Below, piece after piece: positions 10,375-30,766 of a stretch of 33,958 nt of DNA (its first letter is position 1; every line of letters starts with the position of its first letter). The DNA comes from Gemmatimonadota bacterium (GTDB lineage: Bacteria > Gemmatimonadota > Gemmatimonadetes > Longimicrobiales > Gaopeijiaceae). Made by a program: the position numbers and the translations under genes. The notes under the pieces are model-generated. The model ran no database searches and had not been told where the DNA came from. It worked only from the letters and a program-made list of their open reading frames with translations. Where the stretch lies: positions 1-33,958 of the forward strand of contig JASFUR010000001.1 of the NCBI GenBank assembly GCA_050050215.1. The letters are read 5' to 3'.

Positions 10375-12818
<2,444 letters not shown>

Positions 12819-12840
12819 AGCCCCGGAGGGCTCCGGTGAC

Positions 12841-13674
12841 ATGCTCGATCGCTTTCTGCTCATCGCCGGGCCCTGTGTGCTCGAGGACGATGACCTGAAC
12901 CTCGAGGTAGCCCGCAGCCTCTCGACCCTGTCGAGTGAGCTGGGGCTGCCCGTGATCTTCAAGGCGTCGTTCGACAAGGCCAATCGGTCCCGCTTCGATT
13001 CGCCCCGGGGTCCCGGTATGGTCGAAGGGCTGAAGCGACTCGATACCGTCAGGTCGGAAACAGGCCTTCCGATTCTCACCGACATCCACGAGCCGGCGCA
13101 GGCCGCTCCCGCAGCCGAAGTAGCCGACGTGCTCCAGATCCCGGCCTTCCTCTGCCGCCAGACCGACCTGCTCGTCGCCGCCGGCCGCACGGGGAAGCCC
13201 GTGAACGTGAAGAAGGGGCAGTGGATGGCACCCGAGGAGATGGCGGGTGCCGTGGAGAAGGCGCGTCGGGCCGGGGCGGCCGAGGTCGTGGTAACCGAGC
13301 GCGGCAGCGCCCATGGCTACGGCGATCTGGTCGTCGACATGCGCTCCTTCGAGCGCCTACGGGCGGCGACGGGAGCGCGGGCGATCTTCGACGGCACGCA
13401 TTCGGTTCAGCGGTCCGGTCGCGAGGACGGCTCGAGCGGAGGCGACCCCGAGCACATTCCGGCTCTGGTACGGGCCGCCACCGCGGCGGGCTGCGACGGC
13501 CTCTACCTGGAGACCCATCCGCGGCCGGCGACGGCTCCCTCGGACGGCACGAACATGCTACCGCTCGAGACGCTGCCGGGACTGCTGCGCGAGGCGCTGG
13601 CACTCCGCGCTGCGCTCGATCGAAATGACACGACCGCTACGAACGACGACACACAACGGGAGGCGTCCGCGTGA
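12841..13674 (+). CDS. kdsA: 3-deoxy-8-phosphooctulonate (Kdo-8-P) synthase
   Basis: 277 aa with LIAGPCVLE...FKASFDKANRS...DIHE...VLQIPAFLCRQTDLL...NVKKGQ...ERG, the canonical KdsA motif series. Confidence 0.9.
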   Translation: MLDRFLLIAGPCVLEDDDLNLEVARSLSTLSSELGLPVIFKASFDKANRSRFDSPRGPGMVEGLKRLDTVRSETGLPILTDIHEPAQAAPAAEVADVLQIPAFLCRQTDLLVAAGRTGKPVNVKKGQWMAPEEMAGAVEKARRAGAAEVVVTERGSAHGYGDLVVDMRSFERLRAATGARAIFDGTHSVQRSGREDGSSGGDPEHIPALVRAATAAGCDGLYLETHPRPATAPSDGTNMLPLETLPGLLREALALRAALDRNDTTATNDDTQREASA

Positions 13675-14237
13675 GCGGATCAGAAAACCCACTGGACTCG
13701 CAGCTGGCCGCCAAGGTCGAGCTCGTGATCTTCGACGTCGACGGCGTCCTGACGGACGGAGGCGTATACATCGGCTCCCGTGGGGACGGCCATCCGATCG
13801 AGCTGAAGCGGTGGGACATCCAGGACGGCGTCGGCATCAAGATGCTGAAGTGGGGAGGTCTCGACGTGGTCCTGGTATCGGGCCGGGTCTCCACCGCTAC
13901 GGAGCTGCGTGCACGGGAGATCGGCGTGGAGTGCCACCAGGAGCCCGACGCGTACAAGATCCGGGTCGTCGAGCGACTTCTCGACGAAAAGGGGGTCGAT
14001 TGGGATGCCGTGGCCATGCTCGGTGACGACATCCCGGACCTCGCCGTGCTGAGGCGCGTCGCACTGCCCGCGGCGGTCTCCAACGCGACGTCCACGGTCC
14101 GGGACATCGCCAAGTGGACCTCGACCCTCAGGGGAGGACACGGGGCCGTCCGGGAGTTCTGTGAGGCCCTGCTGGAGGCCCGTGGAAACCTGGACGCGGT
14201 GGTGGAGCAGTACGTCGCGGAGCGGAGCCGGAGCTGA
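13671..14237 (+). CDS. kdsC: Kdo-8-phosphate phosphatase (HAD superfamily, KdsC)
   Basis: The GTG at 13671 overlaps the kdsA TGA (GTGA) and has GGGAGG 8 nt upstream. It has the HAD motif I FDVDGVLTDG, then DGVGIK...GDDIPD and GGHGAVRE, typical of KdsC. Confidence 0.85.
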   Translation: MSGSENPLDSQLAAKVELVIFDVDGVLTDGGVYIGSRGDGHPIELKRWDIQDGVGIKMLKWGGLDVVLVSGRVSTATELRAREIGVECHQEPDAYKIRVVERLLDEKGVDWDAVAMLGDDIPDLAVLRRVALPAAVSNATSTVRDIAKWTSTLRGGHGAVREFCEALLEARGNLDAVVEQYVAERSRS

Positions 14238-14332
14238 CGACCCTGGCGAACGATCGAATGCGAATGCTTTGTGTACCAGTGAAGACGACACGACCCAGCG
14301 CCACATCGAGAGACTCGGAGCCTCACAGAGCC

Positions 14333-14908
14333 ATGCACCCTCGGCGAAGACTGAGACCCAGCGGACGGGCCGCACATCTGTTGCTCGGCACGGCCGTCGT
14401 CCTCGGAGCCGCGGCCTGCAGCGAGCAGGCCGTGGAGCCCGGCAGCGCCACGCAGCAGATGGAGAACCTGGAGTCGCCCATCGTCTTCGGCATGACCGCG
14501 TTCATGACGACGAACGGCGTGCGGGCCGGTCGCATCCAGGCCGACACCGCCTACACCTACGCGGATTCCGTGAAGGTCGACCTGCGCGGCATGACGGCGA
14601 CGTTCTTCGACGAGAACGGCAACGACCGGGCGACCGTCACGGGGCTCACGGGTGAGTGGGATCAGCAGACGGACCGCATGGTCGCTCGGGGCGACGTGGT
14701 CCTGACGATCCACAACGATGGCAGCAAGATCGAGAGCGCGGAGATCAACTACGATCCCAGCATCGATCGGGTGTGGAGCGACTCGGCTACCGTGAGGACC
14801 ATGGCGGACGGGTCGGTCACGCGGGGATCGGCGTTCGAGTCCGATATCGACTTCACGAACGTCACGGTGCGCAACGTGCGTGGTGAGGCCGGTACGATCT
14901 TCAACTGA
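14333..14908 (+). CDS. lptC: LPS export system protein LptC-like (membrane-anchored OstA-fold protein)
   Basis: The preferred ATG at 14333 gives MHPRRRLRPSGRAAHLLLGTAVVLGAAAC, a basic N-terminus followed by an anchor. The track start at 14258 is possible. The beta-rich body and its position between kdsC and the lptA-like gene match lptC synteny. Confidence 0.7.
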   Translation: MHPRRRLRPSGRAAHLLLGTAVVLGAAACSEQAVEPGSATQQMENLESPIVFGMTAFMTTNGVRAGRIQADTAYTYADSVKVDLRGMTATFFDENGNDRATVTGLTGEWDQQTDRMVARGDVVLTIHNDGSKIESAEINYDPSIDRVWSDSATVRTMADGSVTRGSAFESDIDFTNVTVRNVRGEAGTIFN

Positions 14909-14924
14909 CGTAGCCGTCCGTCCC

Positions 14925-16694
14925 GTGCCCGTCGCCAATCTTCGCTCCGTCGCGGTGGTCGCGACGTCGCTGGCAGCCCTGTCGACCTCGACCGGACACC
15001 TGGCCGCGCAACAAAGCTGCCGCTATGCGGACACCGGAAACGACCTGTACGTGACCCGGGGCCCGTTCACGTACATCACGAATCCACACCTGCTGTGCAA
15101 CGCCGACCAAGTGGAGATCGCGGCCGATTCGGCCGTCGCGAACACGGAGCAGGGGATGTTCCTCCTGATCCGGGCGGTGCATTACCGGGACGGAGCTCGT
15201 GAGCTCGAATCCGAGGAGGCGCGGTACTTCTACCGCGTGGGCCGCATCCAGGCCCAGGGCGGCGTCCGCGTCACCAACCACGAGGACGGCTCGACGGTGG
15301 AGAACGGCGATCTCGTGCTCCTGCGTCAGACGGAGACCCGCGACGTCGAGGAGATGACGTTCACGATCGGGGACGACGGCATCCGCCCGCGGGCGACTGT
15401 CTATCCAAAGCGCCCGCCACCGCCGCCGGACACGGTATCGACAGCGCCCGATGCGGCGATGGAGACCGCGGACGCCGACAGCACGGGCCTCGCGCTGGAC
15501 AGCCTCGCGCTGGACAGCCTCGCCACCGGCGGGGTCGCAGCCGCGGACAGCGCCCTCGCGACTCCCGACAGCGCGGCGATCGCCTCCCCCGAGCCGACTC
15601 CGGAGCCCCCGGAGCCCGAGCGCATCGTTCCCGAAGAACCCGCCGAGCCCCAGGAGTACATCATGGTCGGCGACCGGCTCTTCTTCCGCGGGGACTCCTA
15701 CTTCAATGCCGTCGGTACCGTCGAGATCACCCGCGACTCGCTCTTCGCCTTCGCCGACTCTGCGGAGTACGACGGCGACCTCGGCGAGTTACGGCTCGAG
15801 GGCTCCGCCCGGGTCGAGAGCAACTCGTACGACCTCGTCGGCCGGCGGATCACGATGGTGTCCGCGTCCGACGGTAGCGACGAGATTCGGGCGCTCAGGG
15901 ACGCGGTGCTGACCGGTGAGGACCTCGAGGTGACGGCACCGCAGGTGGTGCTGCACATGGCGGACGGCGACCTGCAGCGTATGGTCGCAGTCCCGCTGCC
16001 CGAGCCGGACTCCGTCGCCCCGGACCCTCGACGCCCGAGGGCTCCCAGCGCCCCCGCGACGCCGGACAGCACGTCGGAGGACTCTACGGCGGCACCGGGC
16101 CAGCCCCGTGCCGTCGCCCAGGACTTCGAGCTGACCGCGGACTCGCTCGACCTCTCGGCCCCGGGCGGCGAGCTCGATCGGATCTTCGCGGCAGGCCGGG
16201 CGCACAGCATCTCCAATACCCGGTCCGAATTGAACGTAGAGGCGCTACCCGAGCTCGCGCGCACCGACTGGATGGACGCCGATACGATCGAGGTCTTCCT
16301 GGCCACGGACACGACCGCAGCGCCGGGAGCAGTGGCCGACTCGGCTTCGGCCCCGGGCGGCTACACGGTGGATCGGATCGTCGCACGGGTCCGTGCGCAC
16401 GCGCTTTACCGGCTCGTTCCGTCGGACTCGACGGCCGTGGCCGGAGTGGATCCGCCGGCGGTCAGCTATCTCCTCGCCAACGAGATCACGATCTTCATGG
16501 ACGACGGTCAGGCTGACCGGGTGGAGTCGGTGGGCCAGGTGAGCGGTTGGCATCTCGAGCCTTTGAAGCGCTCTGCCGAGCCGACGGATGACGACGCCGA
16601 CGCCGCGTCGGACGACCCCGCCGACCCCATATCCGACGTGCCGTCTCCCGATCCGTCCAGTGCCCCGGTGAACCCCGGGGGCGACGGGGCGTAG
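14925..16694 (+). CDS. Unusually long LptA/OstA-like periplasmic protein with several beta-jellyroll-like segments separated by Pro/Ala/Asp/Ser-rich linkers
   Basis: One uninterrupted frame runs from 14880 to 16694. I prefer the GTG at 14925, which lies after the lptC stop and gives the signal-like [30 protein letters not shown]. Segments such as [35 protein letters not shown] resemble the LptA/OstA_N repeat pattern. The gene occupies the lptA slot between lptC and lptB. Confidence 0.6.
15488..15524 (+). repeat. In-frame 15-nt tandem repeat (about 2.5 copies) inside the lptA-like gene
   Basis: cctcgcgctggacag occurs at 15488-15502 and 15503-15517, followed by a partial copy cctcgcc. It encodes (LALDS)n within low-complexity linker 1. 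Confidence 0.9.
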
Positions 16695-16732
16695 CAAGAA
16701 CCATACCTTACATAGAGACGGAAACGCACCGC

Positions 16733-17593
16733 GTGGAGGCTTCATTGACGACGACGAACGGCAGCCGCCTGTGGGCCGAGGGGCTCACGAAGATCTATCG
16801 AGGGCGGAAAGTCGTGAACGACGTCGACATCAGCGTCGAGCAGGGCGAGATCGTCGGCCTGCTCGGTCCGAACGGCGCCGGGAAGACGACGACGTTCTAC
16901 ATGATGGTCGGGCTCATCCCTCCGGCCTCCGGCACGGTGCACCTGGACGACGACGATCTCACGCGGACGCCGATGTTCAAGCGCGCCCGACGGGGAATCG
17001 GCTACCTGGCTCAGGAGCCGTCGGTGTTCCGGAAGCTGACGGTCGAGGAGAACGTTCTCGCGATCCTCGAGACCATGGGGCTCTCCAAGGCCGACCAGAA
17101 GGCTCGGCTGAACGAGCTCCTCGACGAGCTCGGGCTGCTCGGCCTACGTGAGCACAAGGCGTATTCGCTGTCCGGCGGTGAGCGACGCAGGTTGGAGATC
17201 ACGCGGGCGCTCGTGCAGGAGCCGAAGTTCATGCTTCTCGACGAGCCCTTCGCGGGCATCGATCCCATCGCGGTGAACGACATCCAGGAGATCGTGCAGG
17301 GCCTCCGAGGGAAGGGGATCGGCGTCATCATCACCGACCACAACGTCGAGCAGACGCTCGAGATCGTGGACAGGGCCTACATCATGTACGACGGAAAGAT
17401 CGGCGTGAGCGGCACGGTGTCCGAGCTCGTCTGGAACGACGAGGTCGCCCAGGTCTATCTCGGCCCGATCCTGACGGCGCGCATGCGCCAGCGGTTCCCG
17501 GAGCCCGAGGTGGCCGCGGTCGCGCAGGTCACCGAGCCCATCGGGGCGCAGGACGCCGCCACGGGCTCCCCGGACGAAGTCTCCGCGGAATGA
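16733..17593 (+). CDS. lptB: LPS export ABC transporter ATP-binding protein
   Basis: GTG start at 16733. It has Walker [12 protein letters not shown], the signature [11 protein letters not shown], Walker [14 protein letters not shown] and an H-loop ITDHN. About 35 extra C-terminal residues follow the usual LptB end. Confidence 0.9.
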
Positions 17594-17632
17594 CGGCGAC
17601 GGACCCTACTGTGAATCGTTCGACGAGATGAT

Positions 17633-19141
17633 ATGAGCGGCTTCAACACGAAGCTCTACCAGAGCCAACAGCTCCGGCAGGACATGCGGATCAACCCTCG
17701 CCTGTACCAGGCGATGGAGTTGCTCTACATGCCGCTCCTGGATCTCGAGCAGCATCTCAAGGAGGAGATGGCCGAGAATCCGTTCCTCGAGATGACCGAG
17801 GCCGAGGAGCAGCAGGAGGTCGAGCTCAAGGAGGACACCCAGGACGAGCCCATGGGCGACGACGACGTCGACTGGGAGGAGATCCTCCTCGACGGCTTCG
17901 AGGTCGGCGGCCGCCGCCAGCAGTACGAGCAGAAGGAGTTCTACGAGCCCACGCCCGTCGAGGCCGAGGACCTGCACGACCATCTGCTCGAGCAGCTCCG
18001 GCTCCTCTCGGTCTCGGAGCGCGAGCTGCGCCTCGGCGAGGAGATCATCGGCAACGTCGACGACTCGGGCATGTTGGCGTGCAGTGTCGAAGAGGTCGTC
18101 GACGGGGTCAACGAGTGGCTCGAAGAGGTGCGTCCGACCGCCGTCGAGACCGCCGAGGGCATCGAGGACGAGGAGGAGCGCGCCAGGGAGCTGGCGGAGA
18201 TCGACGAGCTCTTCCGTCCGTACGAGACGGTGGAGGGCGAGCGGATGCTCACGGTGGTGCAGGCCTTCGACCCCCCCGGAATCGCGGCCCGTGACGTCAG
18301 GGAGTCCATCCTGATCCAGCTTCGCCAGCGGGACGAGGAGGGCACGCCCCAGTACGAGATCGTCGACGAGCATTTCGACGCGCTCATCAACCACCGCTGG
18401 AACGACATCGCGCGGGACCTCGGGATCACGCCCAAGGAGGTCCAGGACGCCTGCGACGAGATCAGCCATCTCGATCCGAAACCGGGGCTGAAACACTCGG
18501 TTGCGCCGGAGCAATACGTGATCCCGGATCTCATCGTCGAGAAGATCGACGGCGAGTACATGGTCTTCGCCAACGACACCAGCCTGCCGCGGCTGCGCAT
18601 CTCCCAGTCCTACAGGGACGTGGCTCGCAACAAGAACAAGTTCAAAGGCGAGAACAAGGAGTTCATCGCGAGCAAGCTGAACTCGGCCAACTGGATGATC
18701 CAGGCGATCGAGCAGCGCCGTCAGACCATGCTCAAGGTCATGAACTTCATCGTGGACCGGCAGCGCGACTTTTTCGAGCGCGGCGTGCAATACCTCAAGC
18801 CGCTGACGCTCCGCGAGGTGGCCGACTACATCGAGATGCACGAGTCGACCGTCTCACGCGTGACCAACAAGAAGTTCGTGCAGACTCCCCGAGGCGTGTA
18901 CTCGCTCAAGTACTTCTTCTCGAGCGGGCTCTCCACTGTGGGTGGTGAGGACCTCTCGGCCAGGGCCGTGAAGGACAAGATCAAGCACATGGTCGCCGAC
19001 GAGGACGAGAAGAAGCCGCTCACGGACCAGGCGATCGTGAAGCTCCTCAAGGCCGACGGCGTCAAGATCGCGCGCCGCACGGTAGCCAAGTATCGCGACC
19101 AGATGGGTATTCTCCCCGCTCGCATGCGGAAGCGGGTGTGA
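17633..19141 (+). CDS. rpoN: RNA polymerase sigma-54 factor
   Basis: 502 aa. The N-terminal region I is Gln/Leu-rich (LYQSQQLRQDMRINPRLYQAMELL), followed by an acidic region II. The HTH is ESTVSRVTNKKF. The RpoN box ARRTVAKYR lies near the C-terminus. Confidence 0.95.
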   Translation: MSGFNTKLYQSQQLRQDMRINPRLYQAMELLYMPLLDLEQHLKEEMAENPFLEMTEAEEQQEVELKEDTQDEPMGDDDVDWEEILLDGFEVGGRRQQYEQKEFYEPTPVEAEDLHDHLLEQLRLLSVSERELRLGEEIIGNVDDSGMLACSVEEVVDGVNEWLEEVRPTAVETAEGIEDEEERARELAEIDELFRPYETVEGERMLTVVQAFDPPGIAARDVRESILIQLRQRDEEGTPQYEIVDEHFDALINHRWNDIARDLGITPKEVQDACDEISHLDPKPGLKHSVAPEQYVIPDLIVEKIDGEYMVFANDTSLPRLRISQSYRDVARNKNKFKGENKEFIASKLNSANWMIQAIEQRRQTMLKVMNFIVDRQRDFFERGVQYLKPLTLREVADYIEMHESTVSRVTNKKFVQTPRGVYSLKYFFSSGLSTVGGEDLSARAVKDKIKHMVADEDEKKPLTDQAIVKLLKADGVKIARRTVAKYRDQMGILPARMRKRV

Positions 19142-20097
19142 CACCCGACATCGTCGCACGCCGCGACTTCACGGTCCTCGTGCCCGCCTACGACGAGGCG
19201 CCGGTGATCCCCGATCTGGTGCGAGAGCTCCGGCAGACGTTCGAGCGACACTCGCTCGAGGGCGAAGTCGTCCTCATCGACGACGGCTCGACGGACGGCA
19301 CCGCCGAGGTCGCGGAGAGGGAAGCCGAGGGCTGGGACGCATTCAAGGTCGTCCGGCACAAACAGAACCTGGGCAAGACCGAGGCGATGGTGACGGGCGC
19401 AGCGGCGAGCACCGGGAGCTTCATCGTTCTCTTCGACGCCGATCTCCAGCACTCGACCGAGGAGATTCCGCGTTTCCTCGAGAAGCTGGACGAGGGCTGG
19501 GATATCGTGACCGGGAAGAAGATCGGCAGCTACGACAAGCAGGCGGTGTCGTCGGTCTACAATCGCCTCTCGCGGCGGATCTTCGACGTCCCGGTCCACG
19601 ACCTCAACTCCATGAAGGCTTTTCGCCGCAGCGCCCTGGAGGGCGTCACGCTGCGCCACGACTGGCACCGCTTCTTCGTCGTTCTCGCGCACGCGAGGGG
19701 CGCGAGCGTCACGGAGCTCGACATCGAGCTGCTTCCCCGGCGGGCTGGCGTGTCCAAGTATCAGGGGCCGTTCAGGATCGGGGTCGGGCTCATTGATCTG
19801 ATCTCCGTTTGGTTCCTCCTCCTCTTCTCGCGGAAGCCGCTCCTGCTCTTCGGCGGTACGGGGCTCGCTCTGGCCACGCTGGGTGTGCTCGTCGCCGCGG
19901 TCACGCTGTACCTGCGCTTCCTTCACCCGATGCTGGGGTTCGAGCCGTACGTGCCGCCCATGGGGTATCGGCCCCTCCTGTACCTCGTCATGTTGCTGGA
20001 GACGCTGGGCTTCCTCCTGGTGGGGTTCGGTCTCGTCTCGGAACAGGTGGCACAGGTGCGCGACGAGCTGGAGACGATCCGCAAGAGGAGCACGTAG
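19138..20097 (+). CDS. Family-2 glycosyltransferase with two C-terminal transmembrane helices (GtrB/ArnC/CsbB-like polyprenyl-phosphate sugar synthase architecture)
   Basis: The GTG at 19138 overlaps the rpoN TGA (GTGA). The GT2 core has VLVPAYDE...VVLIDDGSTDGT...FDADLQH. The C-terminal part has two long hydrophobic helices (GLIDLISVWFLLLF..., LLYLVMLLETLGFLLVGFGLV). Confidence 0.75.
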   Translation: MTPDIVARRDFTVLVPAYDEAPVIPDLVRELRQTFERHSLEGEVVLIDDGSTDGTAEVAEREAEGWDAFKVVRHKQNLGKTEAMVTGAAASTGSFIVLFDADLQHSTEEIPRFLEKLDEGWDIVTGKKIGSYDKQAVSSVYNRLSRRIFDVPVHDLNSMKAFRRSALEGVTLRHDWHRFFVVLAHARGASVTELDIELLPRRAGVSKYQGPFRIGVGLIDLISVWFLLLFSRKPLLLFGGTGLALATLGVLVAAVTLYLRFLHPMLGFEPYVPPMGYRPLLYLVMLLETLGFLLVGFGLVSEQVAQVRDELETIRKRST

Positions 20098-20170
20098 GCG
20101 ATTGGCGTCTCACGCGACACTGGGCCATCTGGACGGCTCCCGTAGGCGACCCTAGGGCCGAGGGCGACAC

Positions 20171-20896
20171 ATGACCCCAGACCGCATCCTGGTCATCGTG
20201 CCGACGTACAACGAGCGCGACAACCTGCCGCGGAAGATCCCTCGCATCCTGGAGCAGGACGAGCGCATCGACGTGCTCGTCGTCGACGACGCCTCACCCG
20301 ACGGGACCGGCGAGCTCGCGCGTGAATTTGCGCTGGAGAATCCGCGGCTCCACGTGCTGGAGCGAGAGGCGAAGGACGGGCTGGGCAAAGCGTACCTGGC
20401 TGGGTTCGATTGGGGCCTCGCCCGCGACTACGACCTCTTCTTCGAGATGGACGCCGACATCTCCCATCCTCCGGACGCGCTCCCGCGTATGATCGAGGCC
20501 GCGGCGCAGTATCCGGTCGTCGTGGGGTCCCGCTACGTGGCCGGTCGCGTCACGGTGTCCAACTGGCCGATGAGCCGCCTGCTGATCAGCCTTCTCGGCT
20601 GCTTCTACGCGCGGATCATCACCGGCATACCCGTGCGCGACGCGACCGGCGGATTCAACTGCTGGCGTCGCGAGGTGTTGGAGGCCGTCGGTCTCGAGCG
20701 GATTCGATCCAACGGCTACGCCTTCCAGATCGAGCTCAAGTTCAGGGCATACCGCAAAGGCTTCTCGATGGTGGAGATCCCGATCCTCTTCACGGAGCGC
20801 GACAGCGGCGAGTCGAAGATGTCCAGGAAGATCGTCGGCGAGGCCATTTGGCGGGTCTGGTCGCTGAAGCTCAGGGACCTATTCGGCAAGCTCTGA
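20171..20896 (+). CDS. Polyprenol/dolichol monophosphomannose synthase-like GT2 (Ppm1/DPM1-like, soluble catalytic domain)
   Basis: 241 aa with ILVIVPTYNERDNL...VLVVDDASPDGTGELA...GKAYLAGF...EMDADISHPP...GGFNCWRREVLE...GYAFQIE, as in polyprenol-phosphate mannosyltransferases. Confidence 0.8.
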   Translation: MTPDRILVIVPTYNERDNLPRKIPRILEQDERIDVLVVDDASPDGTGELAREFALENPRLHVLEREAKDGLGKAYLAGFDWGLARDYDLFFEMDADISHPPDALPRMIEAAAQYPVVVGSRYVAGRVTVSNWPMSRLLISLLGCFYARIITGIPVRDATGGFNCWRREVLEAVGLERIRSNGYAFQIELKFRAYRKGFSMVEIPILFTERDSGESKMSRKIVGEAIWRVWSLKLRDLFGKL

Positions 20897-20938
20897 CGAG
20901 GGGGCCCGGCCGGGCGGCTTCGGCGGCCAGAGGCTGCA

Positions 20939-21601
20939 TCACGTGGCGCGCCGACATACGAAGCTGAACTGGTAGGTCCAGCGGAGGGGAATCACGGCCC
21001 GCGCGACCGTGCGCAGCGTGCGCGTCCAGAACCCGGCCGGCTTCGTGTGCCAGGGCTCCTTCTCGACACGCGCGACCCGGAGGCCTCGACGCTCGATGAG
21101 CGTGCGCCAGCCCGTCAGGTCGAGCAGCAACTCCTGCGCCTCCTGTTGCTCAGTCCCTCCGGAGCCGCGGAGGCGCCACACGATGAAGTCCGCGTTGGGG
21201 ACCACGAGCAAGGCGACGCCGTCCGGTCGGAGCACACGCGCTACCTCGGAAATGCCCACGGCGGGATCGAGGAAATGCTCGAGGCTGCCCAGGCACATGA
21301 CGACGTCGAACGCGGCGTCCCGGAAGGGGAGGGCCTCGCCTGCCGCGCGGGCGAGCCCCGCCGACGGGGTGCGGGCCCGCGCGAGCGCGACCGCGTTGGG
21401 GGCGATCTCCACGCCGAACGGGTCGAGCCCCACCTGCTCGGCATCACGCAACAGAAAGCCCTCACCGCATCCGATGTCGAGCAAGCGTCCCCCCGTGCGC
21501 GCCCCCACCGTGCGCAGGTACGTGCGGTAGTCGCGCATCGATCCCGGCGGATGCGTGTAGCGTCGGGTGTAGAACTCCTCGACGTCGCGCCGCGTGCTCA
21601 C
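20939..21601 (-). CDS. Class I SAM-dependent methyltransferase
   Basis: The real gene is the C-terminal 220 aa of track ORF 20939..22387. The GTG at 21601 overlaps the stop of the upstream gene (GTGA). It has SAM motif I LLDIGCGEGFLL and motif II DVVMCLGSLEH. The upstream part of the long ORF is Arg/Pro-rich and overlaps a better gene in another frame. Confidence 0.8.
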   Translation of the reverse strand: MSTRRDVEEFYTRRYTHPPGSMRDYRTYLRTVGARTGGRLLDIGCGEGFLLRDAEQVGLDPFGVEIAPNAVALARARTPSAGLARAAGEALPFRDAAFDVVMCLGSLEHFLDPAVGISEVARVLRPDGVALLVVPNADFIVWRLRGSGGTEQQEAQELLLDLTGWRTLIERRGLRVARVEKEPWHTKPAGFWTRTLRTVARAVIPLRWTYQFSFVCRRAT

Positions 21602-22497
21602 GCCCGCCTGCGCAGCAGCAGCAGGGCCGGGATGACCTCGCCTGTCATGGTCCACAGTCGTGCCCCGATCGCGACGGCCGCCGCCACCCCGAGCGGCATG
21701 ACACCGCTCAGCAACAGGGCGAGGGCTCCCTCCTTGGCGCCCAGGCCCGCCGGCGCGATGACGACGACGTATCCTGCGACGAACGAAAGCGCGAAGCTCG
21801 CGACGAGATGAGGGAACAGGGCGATGGGGGCATCGGTGAGGCTCGCCGTGAACGCGTGGAAGGCCGCGCCGTATACGAGCCACTGGCCCGTGCACATGAC
21901 CAGGAGCACCGCGGCGTCGACGGTAGTACCCCGCCAGGGGCGGAGCTCGCGCTTCAGCAGGCGCCCGGGAATCCGCAGAGCAGCTCGCACGAGCGCAGGA
22001 TGCAGGAGGAGCAGCGCCATCGGCGCGACCCAGCGAGCGACGACCAGCGGCGCCTCGAGGGCCGGGATCGCATCCAGGGGAAACAGGTAGACGCCCAGCA
22101 CCGATGCGGACAGCGTCGCGTACAGCATGTAGAGCGCCAGGGAGGTGATCGACGTCACGGCGTCGATCCCGAGGGCGCGGGCCATGTCGGCCACGCCGAC
22201 CAGCTGCCACACCTTGCCGGGGATGTAGCGGCCCAGGCTGGACACGAACCAGACGCGTGCGAGGGGAACGAGGGCGACGTCGTGATCGAAGGCGGCGAGG
22301 ACGCGTCGCCAGATGACGGCGCTTCCCATCAGGCCGCATAGGAGCAGGGCGATCGACAGGGCCAGCCATCCTCCTTCGAACGACCAATCGTAGGCGAGCA
22401 GCTCCTCGCGCCTTCCCACGACCGCGCGCACCAGAAAGAAGAGCGCTGCGACGATGAACAGCGTGCCGGCGAGGCGGCGCAGGAAGCTCCGGCTCAA
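21598..22497 (-). CDS. Flippase-like / lysylphosphatidylglycerol-synthase-TM-domain (UPF0104) family membrane protein
   Basis: This is the C-terminal 299 aa of track ORF 21598..23838. The TTG at 22497 overlaps the TGA of the upstream YfhO-like gene (TTGA). It has eight or so hydrophobic helices and the SLGRYIPGKVW and APAGLGAKEG motifs I associate with UPF0104/TIGR00374. Confidence 0.7.
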   Translation of the reverse strand: MSRSFLRRLAGTLFIVAALFFLVRAVVGRREELLAYDWSFEGGWLALSIALLLCGLMGSAVIWRRVLAAFDHDVALVPLARVWFVSSLGRYIPGKVWQLVGVADMARALGIDAVTSITSLALYMLYATLSASVLGVYLFPLDAIPALEAPLVVARWVAPMALLLLHPALVRAALRIPGRLLKRELRPWRGTTVDAAVLLVMCTGQWLVYGAAFHAFTASLTDAPIALFPHLVASFALSFVAGYVVVIAPAGLGAKEGALALLLSGVMPLGVAAAVAIGARLWTMTGEVIPALLLLRRRA

Positions 22498-24905
22498 GCG
22501 GATTCGGGGGGAGGGGCGGCCCGGCGCGCGCTCAGCACCGAGACGACCGTCACCACCAGGAGCACCCCGGCGGCCAGAAGCGTGATGACGAGCCCGATGC
22601 GGAGGGAGGGGGGCTCGAACGTGAACGTGACCGTGTGCGTTCCGGCCGGAATCGGAACGGCGCGGAAGGTGTGGTACGCCCGCAGGACCCGCGCCGGAGC
22701 GTCGTCGACGCGTGCGACCCAATCGGGATAGTAGTTGTCCGTCAGAACCAGGAAGGCGGGCTGATTGCTTTGGACCTCGACGTCGACCCTGGCGGGGTCG
22801 TGCCGTGTCACTCGAGCGTCGGCCTGCAGCGTGCTCGGGTCGGACCCACCCGAGACGGTATCGTAGACCAGGGCAGCCCGGAGCGGATCGAACCCTTCCT
22901 CCTGCATCGCCCTGAGCGCGCCGTCGGGCTCCGGCACCTGCTCCGCCGCGGCCACCACGAACGCTCTCGGCAATGCCGTCGTGTTCCGGTAGACGATGGC
23001 GGACCGCCCGTTTCGCGTTCGTCCTCGGAACACCGGCTCGAAGATCGGTGATTGGACGTTCTGCTGCGTCAGCACGTATCGGGCGTTCGCGAGGGCGAGG
23101 AACACGGGGTTGTTCATGTTGCTGAAGTCCGTGTACGAGGCCCCACTCGTGCCCAGGAACTCGTTGTAGGCCTGCAGCTGGTTGCCGTGCTCGCCCCCCA
23201 CGATCTCCAGATCGAAGAGCGTGAGGTAGTCGTCCTGCGGCAGGTCCGGAAGCACGAAGGTGCGGAAGGGACCATCCTGTGTGCTCAGGAACTCGACGAT
23301 CTCGTCCCGTGGAAAGACCTGATCGGGACCCGGGATCGCCTCGATGAACCGCCGATCGATGACCCAGAGGTCCGTCACGACGATGATGCCGATGAGGATC
23401 CCGGCTGCGCGGAGCGGCAGCTTGCCGCGCAGCCATGCCCACAAGGCGCCGAGGGTCACGCCCGTGAAGAGAACGAAGCGCCACGCGCCCGGAGGGTACG
23501 TCGGTCGCTGAGCACCCTGGGTCGAGGCGATCAGGCCCCAGAGCACCGCGACCCCGCCGGCAGCAAGCATGACCCGGGTCGCGGTGGCGAGCTCGCTGGA
23601 CGCGGCGGCACGCTCCGCCTTGCGTCGCCCCGACGCCGCCTCCTCGCGCAGCGTCGAGAGGCGATCGAGCGCGAGGCCCGCGACCACCACGATGCACAGG
23701 ATGAAGAGGAAGAAGGCCAGGGACGGCGCTCGAAACCGAGCCGTGCCCGGCAGCACCGCGTAGTAGAGCCGGTAGATCGGCGTGTATCCACCGAAGGCGA
23801 TGGTCAGTATGAACAGCGCGAGCCCGCCGAAGAACCACGCGACCCGGTCACGTCGCAGCACGTAGACGCCGACGACGGCGAGCAGCAACGCGAACGCGCC
23901 CAGGTACTCGGTGTGCAGCTTGAACGGGTTGGCGCCTCGGTACGCGTCGAGGATGCCGGCCTGCTCGGGTACGGCGAGCCCGGTGATCTCGACCGGCGGC
24001 ATCGACCACGAGGTTGCGTACTCGTAGCCGCGTCCGGGCCCCGCTCGCGGCGACGCGTCCACGTATCCGGCGAACGGGAGGAAGTTGACGGCGTTGAGCG
24101 CAAACGCCGCCGTGAGCATGAAGGCCGCTCCGGAAAGCTTCCTCACGACCCGCTCGGGGAAGCGGAAGAGGAGGAAGACTCCCCACAGACCACCCGCGAG
24201 GAGGACGTAGTAGGCGCTCTGTATCTGGAACGAGAGCATGGCCGAGCCCAGCACGAAGCCGCCCAGCGCGAACCAGCGTAGCCCACCCGTACGCACAGCC
24301 CGGTGGAGCGCGAAAAGGAAGAACGGCGCCAAGGTGGCCACGATCGTGCGCCCGTCGTGCCCCCCGTACACGTACGAGATCAGGTATCCCGAGAACATGA
24401 ACGAGAGACCCGTCAGCCACGCTGCGAAGCGCCTCGCCCCCAACTCGCGCAGCAGCGCGTACGTACCCCAGCCGGCGAGCACGAACTGCACGACGAAGAT
24501 GATCGCCAGGTGCTTGTACGTCGGCACGCCGATGAGCCGAAGGACGAGGGACACCGGGTAGTAGATGTCCATCGAGTTGGCGAAGTACGGCACGCCCCCG
24601 TACACGTACGGGATCCATTTCGGTAGCTCGCCCGCCTGGAACTGATGCGTCACGAACTCCTCGAAGATGTAGCTGATGGCGAGGTAGTCCGTGCCGAAGA
24701 TCTGCATCCCGGGCATGAGCGCCGGCATGAAGAGGGCGATGGCGAGGACGACGTAGCTGCCGATGAGCAGCAGGGGAGGGAAGAACTCGTCGCCGGAGTC
24801 GTCGCCCGACCGCTTCTTATCGCTCACGTACGGAGCTCCAGCTTCATGCCACACAACCCGACGGGAATCGCCGTCGACCGTGTCATCATCGATGTGCTCC
24901 GTCAA
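22494..24905 (-). CDS. YfhO-like polytopic membrane protein (putative GT-C fold glycosyltransferase)
   Basis: About 800 aa with many transmembrane helices in the first two thirds and a C-terminal extracytoplasmic domain. That domain ends LVLTDNYYPDWVARVDDAPARVLRAYHTFRAVPIPAGTHTVTFTFEP, then a final TM helix, a pattern I recognise from YfhO family proteins. The start is ambiguous: TTG at 24905, GTG at 24854 or GTG at 24827. Confidence 0.7.
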   Translation of the reverse strand: MTEHIDDDTVDGDSRRVVWHEAGAPYVSDKKRSGDDSGDEFFPPLLLIGSYVVLAIALFMPALMPGMQIFGTDYLAISYIFEEFVTHQFQAGELPKWIPYVYGGVPYFANSMDIYYPVSLVLRLIGVPTYKHLAIIFVVQFVLAGWGTYALLRELGARRFAAWLTGLSFMFSGYLISYVYGGHDGRTIVATLAPFFLFALHRAVRTGGLRWFALGGFVLGSAMLSFQIQSAYYVLLAGGLWGVFLLFRFPERVVRKLSGAAFMLTAAFALNAVNFLPFAGYVDASPRAGPGRGYEYATSWSMPPVEITGLAVPEQAGILDAYRGANPFKLHTEYLGAFALLLAVVGVYVLRRDRVAWFFGGLALFILTIAFGGYTPIYRLYYAVLPGTARFRAPSLAFFLFILCIVVVAGLALDRLSTLREEAASGRRKAERAAASSELATATRVMLAAGGVAVLWGLIASTQGAQRPTYPPGAWRFVLFTGVTLGALWAWLRGKLPLRAAGILIGIIVVTDLWVIDRRFIEAIPGPDQVFPRDEIVEFLSTQDGPFRTFVLPDLPQDDYLTLFDLEIVGGEHGNQLQAYNEFLGTSGASYTDFSNMNNPVFLALANARYVLTQQNVQSPIFEPVFRGRTRNGRSAIVYRNTTALPRAFVVAAAEQVPEPDGALRAMQEEGFDPLRAALVYDTVSGGSDPSTLQADARVTRHDPARVDVEVQSNQPAFLVLTDNYYPDWVARVDDAPARVLRAYHTFRAVPIPAGTHTVTFTFEPPSLRIGLVITLLAAGVLLVVTVVSVLSARRAAPPPESA

Positions 24906-26124
24906 GGCCGCGCGAGACGCGTCGGCCGCGCCCTTTCGACGCGACGTCCCGGTACAGTGCCTCGAGGCGCGGAACGACGGTCCTCCACGAGAACTCGTCG
25001 CGTACCAGGGCGCGACCCTGTGAGCCGAGGCGAGCGCGCAGCTCGGGGCACTCCGCGAGGCGTACGATCGCTTCCGCCAGGGCCGCCGTGTCGCCCGGCT
25101 CCACGAGGAGCCCGGTCTCGTCGTCCTTCACGACATCGACGATCCCGCCGGTGCGGCTCGCGATGGCCGGCTTGCCGTGCGCGAGGGCCTCGATGAGCAC
25201 CACGCCGAGGCCCTCCGTGTCTCCCTTTTCGTCGACGACGGCCGGCAGCACGAACGCGTCCGCGCTCCTGTAGCGGTCACGCAGGGTCGCGTCGTCCACG
25301 AACCCTTCGAAGGTCACGATGTCGTCCACTCCCGCGCTGCGAGCGTGCGCCTCCAGAGACTCGCGAAGCGGCCCGTCGCCCACGACGCGGAGCTCCACCG
25401 GGACCCGAGTCCGAGCCTGCGTGAGGGCATCGAGCAGGTAACGGACTCCCTTCCGGGCCACGAGACGGCCCACGAAGAGCAGGGAAAGGGGGCCGGAATC
25501 GAGTGACGGGGTGGCTTCGGTCTCCGATCCGACGTCGATCGAGCTGCCGAAGGCGATGCGGTGCACTTCACGGTCGTAGACCGCGCGGATCATGGCGCTC
25601 GTATAGGTGGAGTTGGCCGTGACCGCGTCGGAGCGGCGGATGATCCAGCGCAGCAGCGGCTTGAGTGGACGCAGCTGACGGTTCGTCCAGGTGAGGCCGA
25701 CGCCGTGAAAAGTGCAGATCACGGGAACCCTCGTGACGAGTCGTGCCGCGAAGCCGAGAAGAGCGTGCGGGATCGGCCAGTGGACGTGCACGGCGTCGAA
25801 TCGGCCGCGACGTACGATGCGCGCCGCGGCGAGGGCGCCCGAAGCCACATACCCCGGCACGAGGGCGAGGTAGGCGGGCCGGGATCGGATGCGATCGGGC
25901 GCCGTCTGGTCGTGGGTGAGGTCTTCGATCCTAGCCGGAGCGTAGCGGAACCGATGCACCCGCACGCCGTCGACCGTGTGGCTGCGGAGGCCACGGTAGG
26001 AGGGTGCTAGGACCTCCACGTCGATCCCGTCGGCGCGCAGCCGTTGAATCGTCTCGACGAGCCACGGGGTGACGACATCGTCTTGATGACGCTTGTAGGC
26101 CGTGACGATGTAGAGGATCTTCAC
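24886..26124 (-). CDS. Glycosyltransferase family 4 (GT-B fold, group 1 glycosyltransferase)
   Basis: The preferred GTG at 26124 gives VKILYIVTAYKR, a typical GT4 N-terminus. The track start at 26205 adds 27 Arg/Pro-rich residues. The C-terminal domain has the EX7E-type region PAVVDEKGDTEGLGVVLIEALAHGKPAIASRTGGIVDVV. Confidence 0.8.
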   Translation of the reverse strand: MKILYIVTAYKRHQDDVVTPWLVETIQRLRADGIDVEVLAPSYRGLRSHTVDGVRVHRFRYAPARIEDLTHDQTAPDRIRSRPAYLALVPGYVASGALAAARIVRRGRFDAVHVHWPIPHALLGFAARLVTRVPVICTFHGVGLTWTNRQLRPLKPLLRWIIRRSDAVTANSTYTSAMIRAVYDREVHRIAFGSSIDVGSETEATPSLDSGPLSLLFVGRLVARKGVRYLLDALTQARTRVPVELRVVGDGPLRESLEAHARSAGVDDIVTFEGFVDDATLRDRYRSADAFVLPAVVDEKGDTEGLGVVLIEALAHGKPAIASRTGGIVDVVKDDETGLLVEPGDTAALAEAIVRLAECPELRARLGSQGRALVRDEFSWRTVVPRLEALYRDVASKGRGRRVSRGLDGAHR

Positions 26125-26362
26125 GTGTCCGAGCCGCCGTGGGGTCGGTGAGTCCGCGCTTCGGCCCGGCAGCTGCCGGGGGACCAGGAGCGCGTCGCGT
26201 CTCATTCCGCGTTGAGGCCCATGAACCTAATCTGCGGGCCTCAGCGGAGCCAAAGGGCCCGCAACCCACGAGGCACGAAAACGTTGCGTTCCGCCCGCAG
26301 ATTCGCCATCGAATGGGCGGATTCCACTCCGGGTGAGCCCACGAGAGCGAGAAGGACCGGAC

Positions 26363-26881
26363 ATGGCCTGGGAAATCGAGCGACGCTTTCTGGTGCGCGT
26401 GGCCGATGCCATGTGGCTCCGTCTCGGCGAGGGGTACCACCTGCGACAGGGATACATCCGGAACGGTCAGCCATCGGTGAGGATCCGCATCGGAGAGCCC
26501 AGAGGGGCGGTCCTGACGTGCAAGAGCGGGAAGGGGATCCGGAGGGAAGAGCACGAGGCCGTCGTCCCCGACGAGCTCGCGACGGTCCTTTTCGAGGCGG
26601 CTGAGGATTGCGTCATCGAGAAGATCCGCTGGCACGTGGGGGACTGGGAACTGGATCGCTTTCTGGGCCCTTTGGACGGGCTCATCCTCATCGAGATCGA
26701 GCTCGAGTCCGAGGATCAGGCGATGCCTCCGGTCCCGGAGGGAGTCCATATCCTGCGTGAGGTCACAGACGATAAACGCTTTGTCAGTGGGTACTTAGCT
26801 CGTATGTCTGACAAGAAGCAGAGGAAGCTCGTGAAGAAGGTCTACAAGGAGGTGAAGGGATGGGACGGTCTCAGCGGCTAG
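26363..26881 (+). CDS. CYTH domain protein (triphosphate tunnel metalloenzyme family)
   Basis: The ATG at 26363 has GAAGGA 7 nt upstream. The N-terminal MAWEIERRFLV is the ExExK-type CYTH signature. Alternating charged beta strands follow (RIR, LTCK, EIELE). A Lys-rich C-terminal tail is encoded by a locally AT-richer stretch. Confidence 0.75.
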   Translation: MAWEIERRFLVRVADAMWLRLGEGYHLRQGYIRNGQPSVRIRIGEPRGAVLTCKSGKGIRREEHEAVVPDELATVLFEAAEDCVIEKIRWHVGDWELDRFLGPLDGLILIEIELESEDQAMPPVPEGVHILREVTDDKRFVSGYLARMSDKKQRKLVKKVYKEVKGWDGLSG

Positions 26882-27414
26882 CGGCGCTTCCGGCGGCGCT
26901 GCTGCTCGGGGGCTGCACGATGATCGGCTCTCAGGGCCGAATGGCACCCTCCGTGTCTTCGCGTCCTCCGGCTGGGGGGTCCGTCGCGTCGATTCCGGAC
27001 ATCATTCCGTCACCCGAGCCGCCGGCGGGCTCTGGCAACATGGTCTCGTACGAGCAGAACGGGCATCGATACCGTGTCCTCGACTGGTCCTACGGCTACG
27101 ACGAGCGCGGTAAGGCTTCTTGGTACGGGGAGGACTTCCACGGCCGCAACACGAGCAGCGGGGAGCCTTACGACATGTACAAGCTCACGGCCGCCCACCG
27201 GACGCTCCCGCTCCCGAGCTTCGTACGGGTCACCAACCTGGACAACGGGCAAGCCGTGGTGCTGCGGGTGAACGACCGTGGTCCGTTCGCCGACACGGAC
27301 TCCCGCATCATCGACGTGTCGTACGCGGCCGCCGTGCGCCTCGGAATGGTCGGCACCGGGACGGCCAACGTGCGCGTCGAGGCGATTCAGCCCTGGCAGT
27401 ACCGGGTCGAGTAG
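26860..27414 (+). CDS. rlpA: Septal-ring lytic transglycosylase RlpA family lipoprotein (DPBB domain)
   Basis: The ATG at 26860 is preceded by a strong AAGGAGGTG (26846-26854) that lies inside the CYTH gene. It has a lipobox LLLGGC and the motif series GKASWYGEDFHGRNTSSGEPYDMYKLTAAHRTLPLPSFVRVTNLDNGQAVVLRVNDRGPF, which is diagnostic for RlpA. Confidence 0.9.
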   Translation: MGRSQRLAALPAALLLGGCTMIGSQGRMAPSVSSRPPAGGSVASIPDIIPSPEPPAGSGNMVSYEQNGHRYRVLDWSYGYDERGKASWYGEDFHGRNTSSGEPYDMYKLTAAHRTLPLPSFVRVTNLDNGQAVVLRVNDRGPFADTDSRIIDVSYAAAVRLGMVGTGTANVRVEAIQPWQYRVE

Positions 27415-29303: not shown

Positions 29304-29408
29304 GCATTCGGGCAGCGGACCAGAGACCCAGGATAATGGCGCGCCGCACGACTCGCGAGCGGCGGGGGCACACTGGCGCGGCCCCGCCCCGAATGCGAAC
29401 GTCCTCGC

Positions 29409-30600: not shown

Positions 30601-30766
30601 TCATATGAGGTGAGGCATCTGAGGGATCCGGAGCCGATCCCGGCGTCGGGCCGTAACATCCCCGCGGGCCGATAATGTTGGCGTCCGGCGCGCGTGATCG
30701 ACTAACATTGCACCGTGCGTCTTCCCCACCGACGTGCCCGTACTTCCGACCAACCGGGACCGCTTC

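Follow-up and report, generated by a model that had tools for sequence, protein, structure and literature searches.

A locus beside the kds-lpt-rpoN genes of Gemmatimonadota that probably encodes a multi-component transmembrane glycosylation pathway

The stretch of DNA analysed here (hereafter the window; 33,958 nucleotides (nt), contig JASFUR010000001.1 of assembly GCA_050050215.1) comes from a metagenome-assembled genome (MAG) of the phylum Gemmatimonadota, the sequence of which occurs in wetland metagenomes. Six adjacent genes were followed up. Two family 2 glycosyltransferases, GT2a and GT2b, are encoded on the forward strand, and converging on them is a minus-strand operon for a family 4 glycosyltransferase (GT4), a large YfhO-like membrane protein with a GT-C fold, a UPF0104 membrane protein and an S-adenosylmethionine (SAM)-dependent methyltransferase (Table 1). 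Gene coordinates on both strands were taken from the open reading frame (ORF) list of the window and from the junction sequences, and agree with those given for the six genes in an earlier reading of this DNA (the original prediction). NCBI entries are identical in protein sequence to GT2a, GT2b, the methyltransferase and UPF0104, with GT4 and the YfhO-like protein called shorter. The G+C content of the window is 64–71%.

The start of the methyltransferase gene overlaps the UPF0104 stop codon in GTGA at 21598–21601, and the UPF0104 start overlaps the stop codon of the YfhO-like gene in TTGA at 22494–22497. Both overlaps had been pointed out in the original prediction and can be seen in the sequence, bearing out the translational coupling proposed for the minus-strand genes. 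A third 4-nt overlap, absent from that prediction, lies at 19138–19141, where GTGA joins the TGA stop of rpoN to the GTG start of GT2a. GT2a is probably translationally coupled to rpoN, at the end of a kdsB…lptB-rpoN array in which neighbouring genes overlap or are separated by at most 39 nt; with GT2a and GT2b this becomes a ten-gene forward-strand array of overlaps or gaps of at most 73 nt. The array genes gave Pfam matches to CTP_transf_3, CTP_synth_N, DAHP_synth_1, HAD hydrolase, LptC, ABC_tran and three Sigma54 domains which, with the same order in relatives, confirm that the module abuts the kds/lpt/rpoN genes. Two short wetland metatranscriptome contigs cross the GT4/YfhO junction (24653–24941), which is weak evidence of expression and co-transcription.

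Table 1. Positions of the six genes and of the adjoining kds-lpt-rpoN array in the window
Gene	Position	Strand	Product	Remark
kdsB, pyrG, kdsA, kdsC, lptC, lptA-like, lptB, rpoN	10375..19141	+		co-directional, running straight into GT2a
GT2a	19138–20097	+	319 aa	GTG start
GT2b	20171–20896	+	241 aa	
Methyltransferase	20939–21601	−	220 aa	
UPF0104	21598–22497	−	299 aa	TTG start
YfhO-like GT-C	22494–24827 (NCBI) or to 24905 (JGI)	−	777 aa (NCBI) or 803 aa (JGI)	
GT4	24886–26124 (NCBI)	−	412 aa	first gene of the minus-strand operon; ORF reaches 26205

GT2a matches Pfam Glycos_transf_2 at 99 bits and aligns over its full length, C-terminal membrane region included, to solved ArnC (E = 5e-29); structures of dolichyl-phosphate mannose synthase (DPMS) and GtrB are also matched, more weakly than ArnC. 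Its top NCBIfam matches are ArnC (100 bits, cut-off 529), PgfS (94 bits) and AglJ (68 bits), each far under the equivalog cut-off. Hydrophobic segments were found by hydropathy at residues 212–253 and 283–301, and the acidic pairs D48/D49 and D100-x-D102 are kept in at least 95% of 35 sequences. Judged by sequence, GT2a is a membrane-anchored polyprenyl-phosphate glycosyltransferase of the ArnC/GtrB/CsbB/AglJ type, and its initial description as GtrB/ArnC/CsbB-like with two C-terminal transmembrane helices agrees with the full-length ArnC match and is consistent with hydropathy. GT2b scores 112 bits on Glycos_transf_2 and reaches no NCBIfam equivalog model at its cut-off. Its best solved relative is the dolichyl-phosphate-mannose synthase of Pyrococcus furiosus (E = 1.8e-33; residues 5–232 against 24–246), and D39/D40 and D94-x-D96 are kept in at least 95% of 42 sequences. 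By hydropathy it lacks C-terminal transmembrane helices, like Ppm1 and DPM1, and because of this it is probably peripheral to the membrane. With a match along the whole length, the expected Ppm1-like class holds, and GT2b is classed by similarity as a Ppm1/DPM1-type polyprenyl/dolichyl-phosphate mannose synthase-like GT2.

For the GT-C and UPF0104 proteins a comparison of folds was needed, because searches against PDB chains by sequence alone gave nothing useful. The GT-C protein, named ‘YfhO family protein’ by NCBI, matches Pfam YfhO (PF09586) at 41.3 bits (cut-off 28.5), although the alignment covers only residues 696–775, corresponding to profile positions 755–835 of 835 (the last ~80). PgfM1 and PgfM2 of NCBIfam likewise match at the C-terminus only, PTPS_related gives a weak Pfam match in the N-terminal membrane region, and a permissive Pfam scan gave no cross-match to other GT-C families. 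In all, 772 homologues were found, and those that are named belong to Gemmatimonadota. An AlphaFold (AF2) model built on 17 homologues (pLDDT, the predicted local distance difference test, 80.5; pTM, the predicted TM-score, 0.84) has a multi-helix membrane domain of ~13 helices, a beta-rich periplasmic domain at ~495–738 and a final C-terminal transmembrane helix. When the model was compared with the PDB by Foldseek, the top matches were all GT-C enzymes: AftD, ArnT (TM-score 0.56 on the target), STT3/PglB, AftA, EmbA/B, ALG12 and Pmt, with probability 1.0 for AftD, ArnT, STT3, PglB and Emb. D47 directly follows the first transmembrane helix, at the beginning of a periplasmic loop that is the first of the protein; all 17 aligned sequences have it, as do at least 95% of 61 sequences, and this placement and conservation are as would be expected for a GT-C catalytic acid. 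The model and its structural matches agree with the GT-C fold anticipated for the ~800-aa protein, and the name ‘YfhO-like’ holds for the fold and the C-terminal 80-residue match but not for the membrane core. The 777-aa protein is modelled as a divergent GT-C of the YfhO superfamily.

The UPF0104 protein aligns to positions 3–295 of the 302-position LPG_synthase_TM profile (PF03706), and most of its homologues carry PF03706 in precomputed annotation; some orthologues are named by NCBI ‘lysylphosphatidylglycerol synthase domain-containing protein’. Its AF2 model, built from database homologues, has pLDDT 91. The four best Foldseek matches in the PDB are all MprF, from three species (9j8s, 7duw, 7f47, 6lvf; probability 1.0; TMq 0.50–0.62 over ~290 columns), and the matches that follow have probability of at most 0.21. 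By its predicted structure the protein has the MprF-flippase-domain fold, in line with the original prediction, with a Pfam match that is full length but under the cut-off. A UPF0104 profile search of 1.84 billion representatives gave 17,123 matches. Fusions among the 150 closest relatives (P0219, P0232, P0283, P0222, P0266, P0297, P0333, P0339) join it to DUF2079 in three cases, to a class I methyltransferase, a PLD/cardiolipin-synthase domain and a B12-binding radical SAM domain in one each, and to a TolC-like OEP domain in two; the two OEP cases are unusual and could stem from errors of gene calling, and the methyltransferase fusion mirrors the translational coupling of those two genes in the window. 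DUF2079 is presumably a member of the GT-C clan, in which case its three fusions would speak for a partnership of UPF0104 with GT-C enzymes. Comparison by hhalign of the GT-C alignment with a UPF0104–DUF2079 fusion protein gave no match, with a single sequence as the template, and no paper mentioning DUF2079 was found in the literature searched. The six genes fill 19138–26205, and among them ORFs, Pfam and NCBIfam revealed no GtrA, Wzx, SMR (including ArnEF) or MATE protein; for this reason UPF0104 is the only flippase candidate of the locus.

Neither GT4 nor the methyltransferase has a transmembrane segment by hydropathy, and Pfam, NCBIfam and PDB searches agree on the identities originally given to them. 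GT4 matches Glycos_transf_1 (135 bits) and Glyco_transf_4 (77 bits), covering both GT-B halves, and its E331-x7-E339 motif is conserved in the family alignment. Its best solved relatives are BshA, PimB′, PimA and MshA. On the GpgS model (GlcN_PG_synth) it scores 61 bits against a cut-off of 480, and it is also under the cut-off for monoglucosyl-diacylglycerol synthase. GT4 is accordingly classified, from its domain matches, as a cytoplasmic GT-B-fold glycosyltransferase whose relatives do not reveal the acceptor. The methyltransferase matches Methyltransf_11 (77 bits) and the NCBIfam DVU_1556 family (73 bits, under the cut-off of 155), its close homologues are named by NCBI ‘class I SAM-dependent methyltransferase’, and it is an ordinary cytoplasmic enzyme of that class.

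In 185,579 species genomes a pattern scan found 79 loci, most of them from Gemmatimonadota MAGs (Longimicrobiales and Gemmatimonadales). Synteny was followed in 60 Gemmatimonadota loci, on which the window proteins were mapped, and in gene calls on two further contigs. The ancestral order has a forward part, kdsA-kdsC-kdsD-lptC-lptA-lptB-rpoN-GT2a; a middle part convergent to GT2a, [MT]-UPF0104-YfhO-[GT4b-MT′]-GT4, where MT stands for methyltransferase; and an end part, GT2b-(207-aa zinc-ribbon protein)-(PlsC-like acyltransferase), which faces a TPR_21 gene. Beyond this layout relatives have BamA and TamB, and PQQ beta-propeller, TPR_21 and YfgM-like genes also flank. The arrangement of kds-lpt-rpoN-GT2a, UPF0104-YfhO-GT4 and GT2b is kept phylum-wide. 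rpoN adjoins GT2a in 26 of 27 loci; in the relatives L080 and L081 the gap between them is 7–10 nt. In 28 of 31 loci the 8 kb downstream of the GT-C gene include GT2a (convergent in 27). UPF0104 immediately follows the GT-C gene in at least 42 of 52 loci; it also lies just downstream in L024 and L033, which the proximity filter had missed. Upstream of the GT-C gene are a GT4 orthologue (32 of 38 loci) and GT2b, divergent from GT4 (35 of 38). Many relatives add a second GT4 (GT4b), which like the methyltransferase varies between loci, and a PlsC-family acyltransferase follows GT2b in 15 of 38.

The synteny predicted for the genes was thus found across the phylum, and because of it the arrangement is not a chance juxtaposition. 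As a six-gene set the original prediction was only partly right, in that the five-family arrangement is syntenic but about half of the loci have a methyltransferase, and the usual place of GT2b is on the other side of the operon. The window departs from the common layout in that GT2b has moved beside GT2a and that GT4 is separated from the TPR gene by CYTH and RlpA genes. In relatives kdsD, with SIS and CBS domains, stands between kdsC and lptC (L080 19273–20259, compared with 13671–14908 of the window); kdsD (tblastn, E ≤ 1e-3), the 207-aa protein and the PlsC-like acyltransferase were searched for in the window and all are absent. Adjacency is kept across Longimicrobiales and Gemmatimonadales at 40–57% identity of the GT-C protein. 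GT2a and GT2b are 57–69% identical across the phylum, comparable to RpoN, and this similarity suggests a core function.

In two Gemmatimonadaceae MAGs the families recur as a paralogous cassette: in L066 (400–8722) GT2a-GT4-UPF0104-YfhO-(630-aa protein)-GT2b all lie on one strand, and part of this is found in L067 (865–5998). The presence of the same five families in a paralogous single-strand cassette argues that they act together. The 630-aa protein, which is 48% identical between the two loci, carries Big_1/Big_2 and beta-propeller domains, and in L066 its N-terminus resembles a lipoprotein signal, with hydrophobic residues up to a final LAAC; the protein might serve as an acceptor or as a partner. 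In three other loci (L038, L043, L048) GT2a comes straight after the GT-C gene and in the same orientation, echoing the csbB-yfhO pairing. The full cassette was seen in Gemmatimonadota only, the sample from other phyla being small: in its 11 loci no UPF0104 gene lay beside the YfhO-like gene.

Several further features of the relatives were observed. The 207-aa protein after GT2b (L080 4703–5961; L081 6663–7948) has an N-terminal CxxC…CxxC zinc ribbon and no Pfam match, and the series GT2b, 207-aa protein and acyltransferase recalls the Corynebacterium ppm1-ppm2 operon of a synthase plus an acyltransferase, although the acyltransferase family differs. L004 (12427–16508) and L006 (12298–16382), where no UPF0104 follows the GT-C gene, have instead a second, divergent YfhO-like gene (28–29% identity), which lies with a GT4 of its own on the opposite strand. 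A contig labelled ‘uncultured Actinomycetota’ (L049, CAWDAE010000006.1) carries a Gemmatimonadota-type locus with fragmented GT2b, GT2a and rpoN matches, which suggests mis-binning or a frameshifted long-read assembly.

A GT2 synthase of C55-phosphate-sugars, a flippase and a GT-C enzyme make up an established scheme of extracytoplasmic glycosylation (PMC8035078, PMC11127046, PMC5836110), in which the flippase families vary and include GtrA, Wzx, SMR and MATE (PMC8035078, PMC11127046). The locus encodes two GT2 proteins with synthase matches and intact DxD motifs, a multi-spanning GT-C protein whose first extracytoplasmic loop keeps an acidic residue, and linkage of synthase and GT-C genes, both in the Gemmatimonadota loci and in the L066 cassette; its flippase candidate belongs to none of the four families named. 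In folds, motifs and linkage the parts fit the three-component logic put forward in the original prediction, which we regard as probably correct here, with UPF0104 standing outside the usual flippase families.

One close match in design is the teichoic-acid glycosylation of CsbB/GtcA/YfhO in Bacillus subtilis and Staphylococcus aureus and CsbB/YfhO in Listeria, where the GT2 makes a C55-phosphate-sugar (PMC5836110, PMC7389260, PMC8035078). Common to both is a membrane-anchored GT2 linked to a large YfhO-family GT-C with an extracytoplasmic C-terminal domain. The present locus differs in its diderm host (judged from the lipopolysaccharide (LPS)-pathway kds and lpt genes), in which teichoic acids are not expected, in a UPF0104 candidate that is not GtrA-type, in the addition of a Ppm1-like synthase, GT4 and methyltransferase, and in a GT-C of which only the last ~80 residues align to YfhO models. 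The ArnC/ArnT/ArnEF system, which adds 4-amino-4-deoxy-L-arabinose (L-Ara4N) to lipid A, decorates LPS in the periplasm by a GT-C using an ArnC-like polyprenyl-phosphate-sugar; our locus likewise lies beside LPS genes, ArnC is the best solved relative of GT2a, and ArnT is a top structural match of the GT-C. In contrast to the Arn system, GT2a scores 100 bits against the ArnC cut-off of 529, the GT-C is YfhO-type rather than ArnT/PMT_2-type, LPS would be an acceptor by inference, and no gene like arnA, arnB, arnD, arnE or arnF, nor a deacetylase, was found among the window proteins by Pfam or NCBIfam. Similar LPS systems are RgtE/RgtA-D with LpcC in Rhizobium, FlmF1/FlmF2/FlmK in Francisella and LgmABCD in Bordetella; Francisella also has two synthases, and Rhizobium a GT4 core transferase plus GT-C enzymes.

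UPF0104 itself has been placed in glycosylation before. A conserved archaeal neighbourhood described in 2015 joins an AglD-like GT2, UPF0104 (arCOG00899) and a PMT/STT3-like GT-C (arCOG00563), from which the family was predicted to be a flippase of glycosylation pathways (PMC5898192). Both systems have a polyprenyl-type (in archaea dolichyl) phosphate GT2, a predicted flippase of MprF type and a GT-C. The archaeal one is tied to S-layer N-glycosylation, with UPF0104 often fused to the GT2 (AglD), whereas the present one is bacterial, has separate genes and a YfhO-type GT-C, and is linked to LPS genes. GT4 and a putative UPF0104 flippase share one predicted operon, as here, in gpgSDF of Pseudomonas aeruginosa, where the GT4 makes N-acetylglucosaminyl-phosphatidylglycerol, and in hexSDF of Clostridioides difficile (PMC12713373). 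Those operons include a deacetylase, make a simple glyco-phospholipid and have neither GT-C nor polyprenyl-phosphate-sugar synthase; with the low GpgS score of GT4 and no deacetylase in the module, only the GT4 and UPF0104 pairing is held in common.

Cytoplasmic GT4 steps, a Ppm1-type donor and a periplasmic GT-C are also combined in the actinobacterial pathway to phosphatidylinositol mannosides, lipomannan and lipoarabinomannan (PIM/LM/LAM; PimA/PimB′, Ppm1, PimE/Mpt; PMC3485146, PMC12041525). The GT-C families differ, and no phosphatidylinositol synthase is encoded in the window. Actinobacterial PIM/LM genes are scattered rather than clustered, and we know of no flippase for the pathway. Nearer in enzyme family is PgfS/PgfM1/PgfE/PgfM2 of Streptococcus mutans, in which a GT2 is paired with YfhO-type enzymes and proteins are glycosylated. 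In Bacteroidota, an O-oligosaccharyltransferase of this kind would be expected to use undecaprenyl-diphosphate-linked oligosaccharide donors, whereas the present locus encodes synthases of polyprenyl-monophosphate sugars. The only Bacteroidota locus retrieved (L073, a Marinifilum MAG) has a YfhO protein ~24% identical, with no partner families in the 10 kb upstream and a contig end ~0.5 kb downstream. The YfhO protein proposed as O-oligosaccharyltransferase in Bacteroidota is phylum-wide in a diderm and predicted in silico only, as is the case here (bioRxiv 10.64898/2026.07.27.740950), and a large YfhO-like ‘dark’ family, ‘component 27’, was noted in 2023 (PMC10584680).

In its manner of working the locus resembles CsbB/YfhO, ArnC/ArnT and Gtr, yet it is the orthologue of none, because all equivalog models are missed by wide margins, and each of its components belongs to a familiar family. 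No paper on this locus was found, but the claim of the original prediction that the combination looks undescribed was overstated in view of the archaeal neighbourhood, the GT4 and UPF0104 pairing of gpgSDF and the Bacteroidota YfhO. New here is the setting of what would be a YfhO-type GT-C system: a diderm phylum, a flippase candidate of MprF type, two donor synthases, a GT4 and a methyltransferase, beside kds-lpt-rpoN.

On balance, we think it likely that the locus specifies a housekeeping, phylum-wide, multi-component transmembrane glycosylation pathway of Gemmatimonadota. In the pathway that we infer, GT2a and GT2b would load monosaccharides from nucleotide sugars onto polyprenyl phosphate at the cytoplasmic face, with GT2b probably making polyprenyl-phosphate-mannose. 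GT4, joined by the second GT4 in many relatives, and the methyltransferase would glycosylate and O-methylate a lipid-linked intermediate on the cytoplasmic side, UPF0104 would move a lipid-linked species to the periplasmic leaflet, and the GT-C, through D47, would transfer a sugar from a polyprenyl-phosphate donor onto its target in the envelope. That target is most likely a lipid-anchored molecule (the core or lipid A of LPS, or some other glycolipid of the outer membrane), since GT2a is co-transcribed with kds-lpt-rpoN and since BamA, TamB and YfgM-like genes flank the locus in relatives.

A number of observations weigh against this account. The acceptor is read from gene neighbourhood, and no relevant paper on Gemmatimonadota glycolipids, LPS, polar lipids or envelope glycans was found in the literature searched. 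The locus has two donor synthases to a single GT-C gene, so that one of the donors may be meant for a different pathway. In its membrane core the GT-C aligns to no Pfam or NCBIfam YfhO or PgfM model. The UPF0104 protein of the window scores 26.2 bits on PF03706, under the cut-off of 33.4, and two UPF0104 profiles run against PDB sequences matched no solved MprF. Five of the loci lack UPF0104 (L004, L006, L038, L043 and L048), and the methyltransferase occurs in 19 of 38. Characterised UPF0104 and MprF proteins act on glycerophospholipids rather than on polyprenyl-phosphate-sugars (PMC12713373; bioRxiv 10.1101/2022.03.11.483950).

This last point bears directly on the role first proposed for UPF0104, that of a polyprenyl-phosphate-sugar flippase, which is plausible but one of two plausible readings. 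MprF flips a glycerolipid, aminoacyl-phosphatidylglycerol, and GpgF, a putative flippase, is paired with the GT4 enzyme GpgS (PMC12713373); because the characterised relatives flip or are linked to glycerolipids, GT4 and UPF0104 could act together as synthase and flippase of a glycolipid. A glycosylated glycerolipid would then be built at the cytoplasmic face by GT4 together with GT4b and the methyltransferase, UPF0104 would flip that glycolipid, and the GT-C would extend it with GT2a and GT2b donors flipped by an unlinked protein. We consider such a lipoglycan or glycolipid pathway, akin to PIM/LM synthesis or gpgSDF, unlikely, if quite possible. It gains from the glycerolipid-modifying partners of UPF0104 proteins, in GpgS beside GpgF (PMC12713373) and in MprF, and from reported fusions of GT-B enzymes with UPF0104 (bioRxiv 10.1101/2022.03.11.483950). 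The best solved relatives of GT4 include PimB′ and PimA, GT2b is Ppm1/DPMS-like, GT4 directly adjoins UPF0104 in L066, a PLD/cardiolipin-synthase fusion occurs among UPF0104 relatives, and the acyltransferase after GT2b in some relatives would suit a glycerolipid product. Yet GT4 falls far short of both the GpgS and the monoglucosyl-diacylglycerol synthase models, its matches to BshA and EpsE are not lipid-specific, the donors would call for a second flippase, the window has neither the acyltransferase gene nor its partner gene, and the literature on lipids of the phylum gave no relevant paper. A narrower form of the favoured glycosylation pathway, in which a YfhO-type GT-C system decorates LPS or another outer-membrane glycolipid and has in UPF0104 its own flippase for polyprenyl-phosphate-sugars, as a phylum-wide housekeeping function co-transcribed with lptB-rpoN, is also doubtful.

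Proteins rather than lipids could be the acceptor. In a general O-glycosylation, the GT-C would modify periplasmic or outer-membrane proteins or lipoproteins, with donors from GT2a and GT2b or with a polyprenyl-phosphate-linked oligosaccharide built by GT2a and the GT4s in the manner of AglJ; PgfS/PgfM1 of S. mutans, PMT/Ppm1 of Actinobacteria and the proposed Bacteroidota YfhO are the models. The Gemmatimonadota and Bacteroidota belong to the same FCB (Fibrobacterota–Chlorobiota–Bacteroidota) group. In Bacteroidota YfhO has been proposed as the O-oligosaccharyltransferase of a phylum-wide system (bioRxiv 10.64898/2026.07.27.740950). GT2a matches PgfS and AglJ, and the C-terminus of the GT-C matches PgfM1 and PgfM2, but these matches are far under equivalog cut-offs; STT3, PglB and Pmt appear among the structural matches of the GT-C. 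The ppm operon of Corynebacterium glutamicum ties a Ppm synthase to lipoprotein acylation and glycosylation (PMC3460810), and the L066/L067 cassette encloses its Big_1/Big_2 beta-propeller lipoprotein between GT-C and GT2b. Against this, no candidate acceptor protein is encoded within the module of the window, a Big_2 lipoprotein encoded elsewhere in it (30734–32812) is not homologous to the L066 cassette protein, and the genes conserved around the locus belong to LPS and outer-membrane lipids and not to protein secretion, so that we hold protein O-glycosylation to be improbable. More improbable again is that the genes serve separate pathways, with GT2a, as part of the kds-lpt-rpoN operon, acting alone for LPS, GT2b having an acyltransferase-linked function and the minus-strand operon being an unrelated glycan cluster. 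Three transcription units in differing orientations, a GT2b that has moved here from the head of its own operon with the 207-aa protein and the acyltransferase, and a methyltransferase and second GT4 that vary between loci would fit such a division. It is opposed by the adjacency kept at 40–57% GT-C identity, by the recurrence of five families in the L066 cassette, and by L038, L043 and L048, in which GT2a immediately follows the GT-C gene in the same orientation.

A sigma-54 promoter linking the module to RpoN was considered and rejected, as matches to TGGCAC-N5-TTGC with up to two mismatches were no commoner than expected (20 against 21.6) and none upstream of GT4 was convincing. A sigma-70 promoter scan gave 0 promoters, a terminator scan gave terminator-like sites within genes only, and the 42 nt that separate GT2b from the convergent methyltransferase gene contain no significant hairpin (z = −0.30). 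Among the neighbouring genes, the lptA-like gene between lptC and lptB (14880–16694) encodes a 604-aa protein without Pfam match, and its 518-aa counterpart in L081 has a faint LptD_N/OstA match only; if this is LptA, it is three to four times what we take to be the usual size. A gene for a DedA/VTT-domain membrane protein (1910–2521) shares 8 nt with the start of a gene that encodes a tyrosine recombinase of XerC/D type (2514–3419); DedA proteins have been implicated in undecaprenyl-phosphate recycling. At 26333–27414, between GT4 and the TPR_21 gene where relatives have the GT2b operon, lie genes for a CYTH-domain protein (slightly under the Pfam cut-off) and an RlpA-family lytic transglycosylase lipoprotein, with ORFs that overlap by 22 nt. 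The longest ORFs of a Crp-like regulator (28554–29561, minus strand) and a Sir2-family protein (29336–30547, plus strand) overlap by 226 nt at their 5′ ends, and at least one true start is probably further downstream.

For the biology of the phylum, which is abundant in soils and wetlands, the locus probably makes a core envelope component, because it is conserved about as well as rpoN and is embedded between Kdo (3-deoxy-D-manno-oct-2-ulosonic acid)/Lpt genes and, in relatives, those for BamA and TamB. The locus is also a natural case in which to ask if an MprF-type UPF0104 protein can serve glycosylation, for which the archaeal prediction dates from 2015, and it bears on the role of YfhO-type GT-C enzymes in diderms, a question now raised for Bacteroidota too. 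Should the narrower form of the pathway hold, UPF0104 would be a fifth flippase family in three-component glycosylation systems, and a YfhO-superfamily enzyme would have its first defined role in a diderm envelope. The practical value of the locus is as a defined six-gene target rather than as a new principle.

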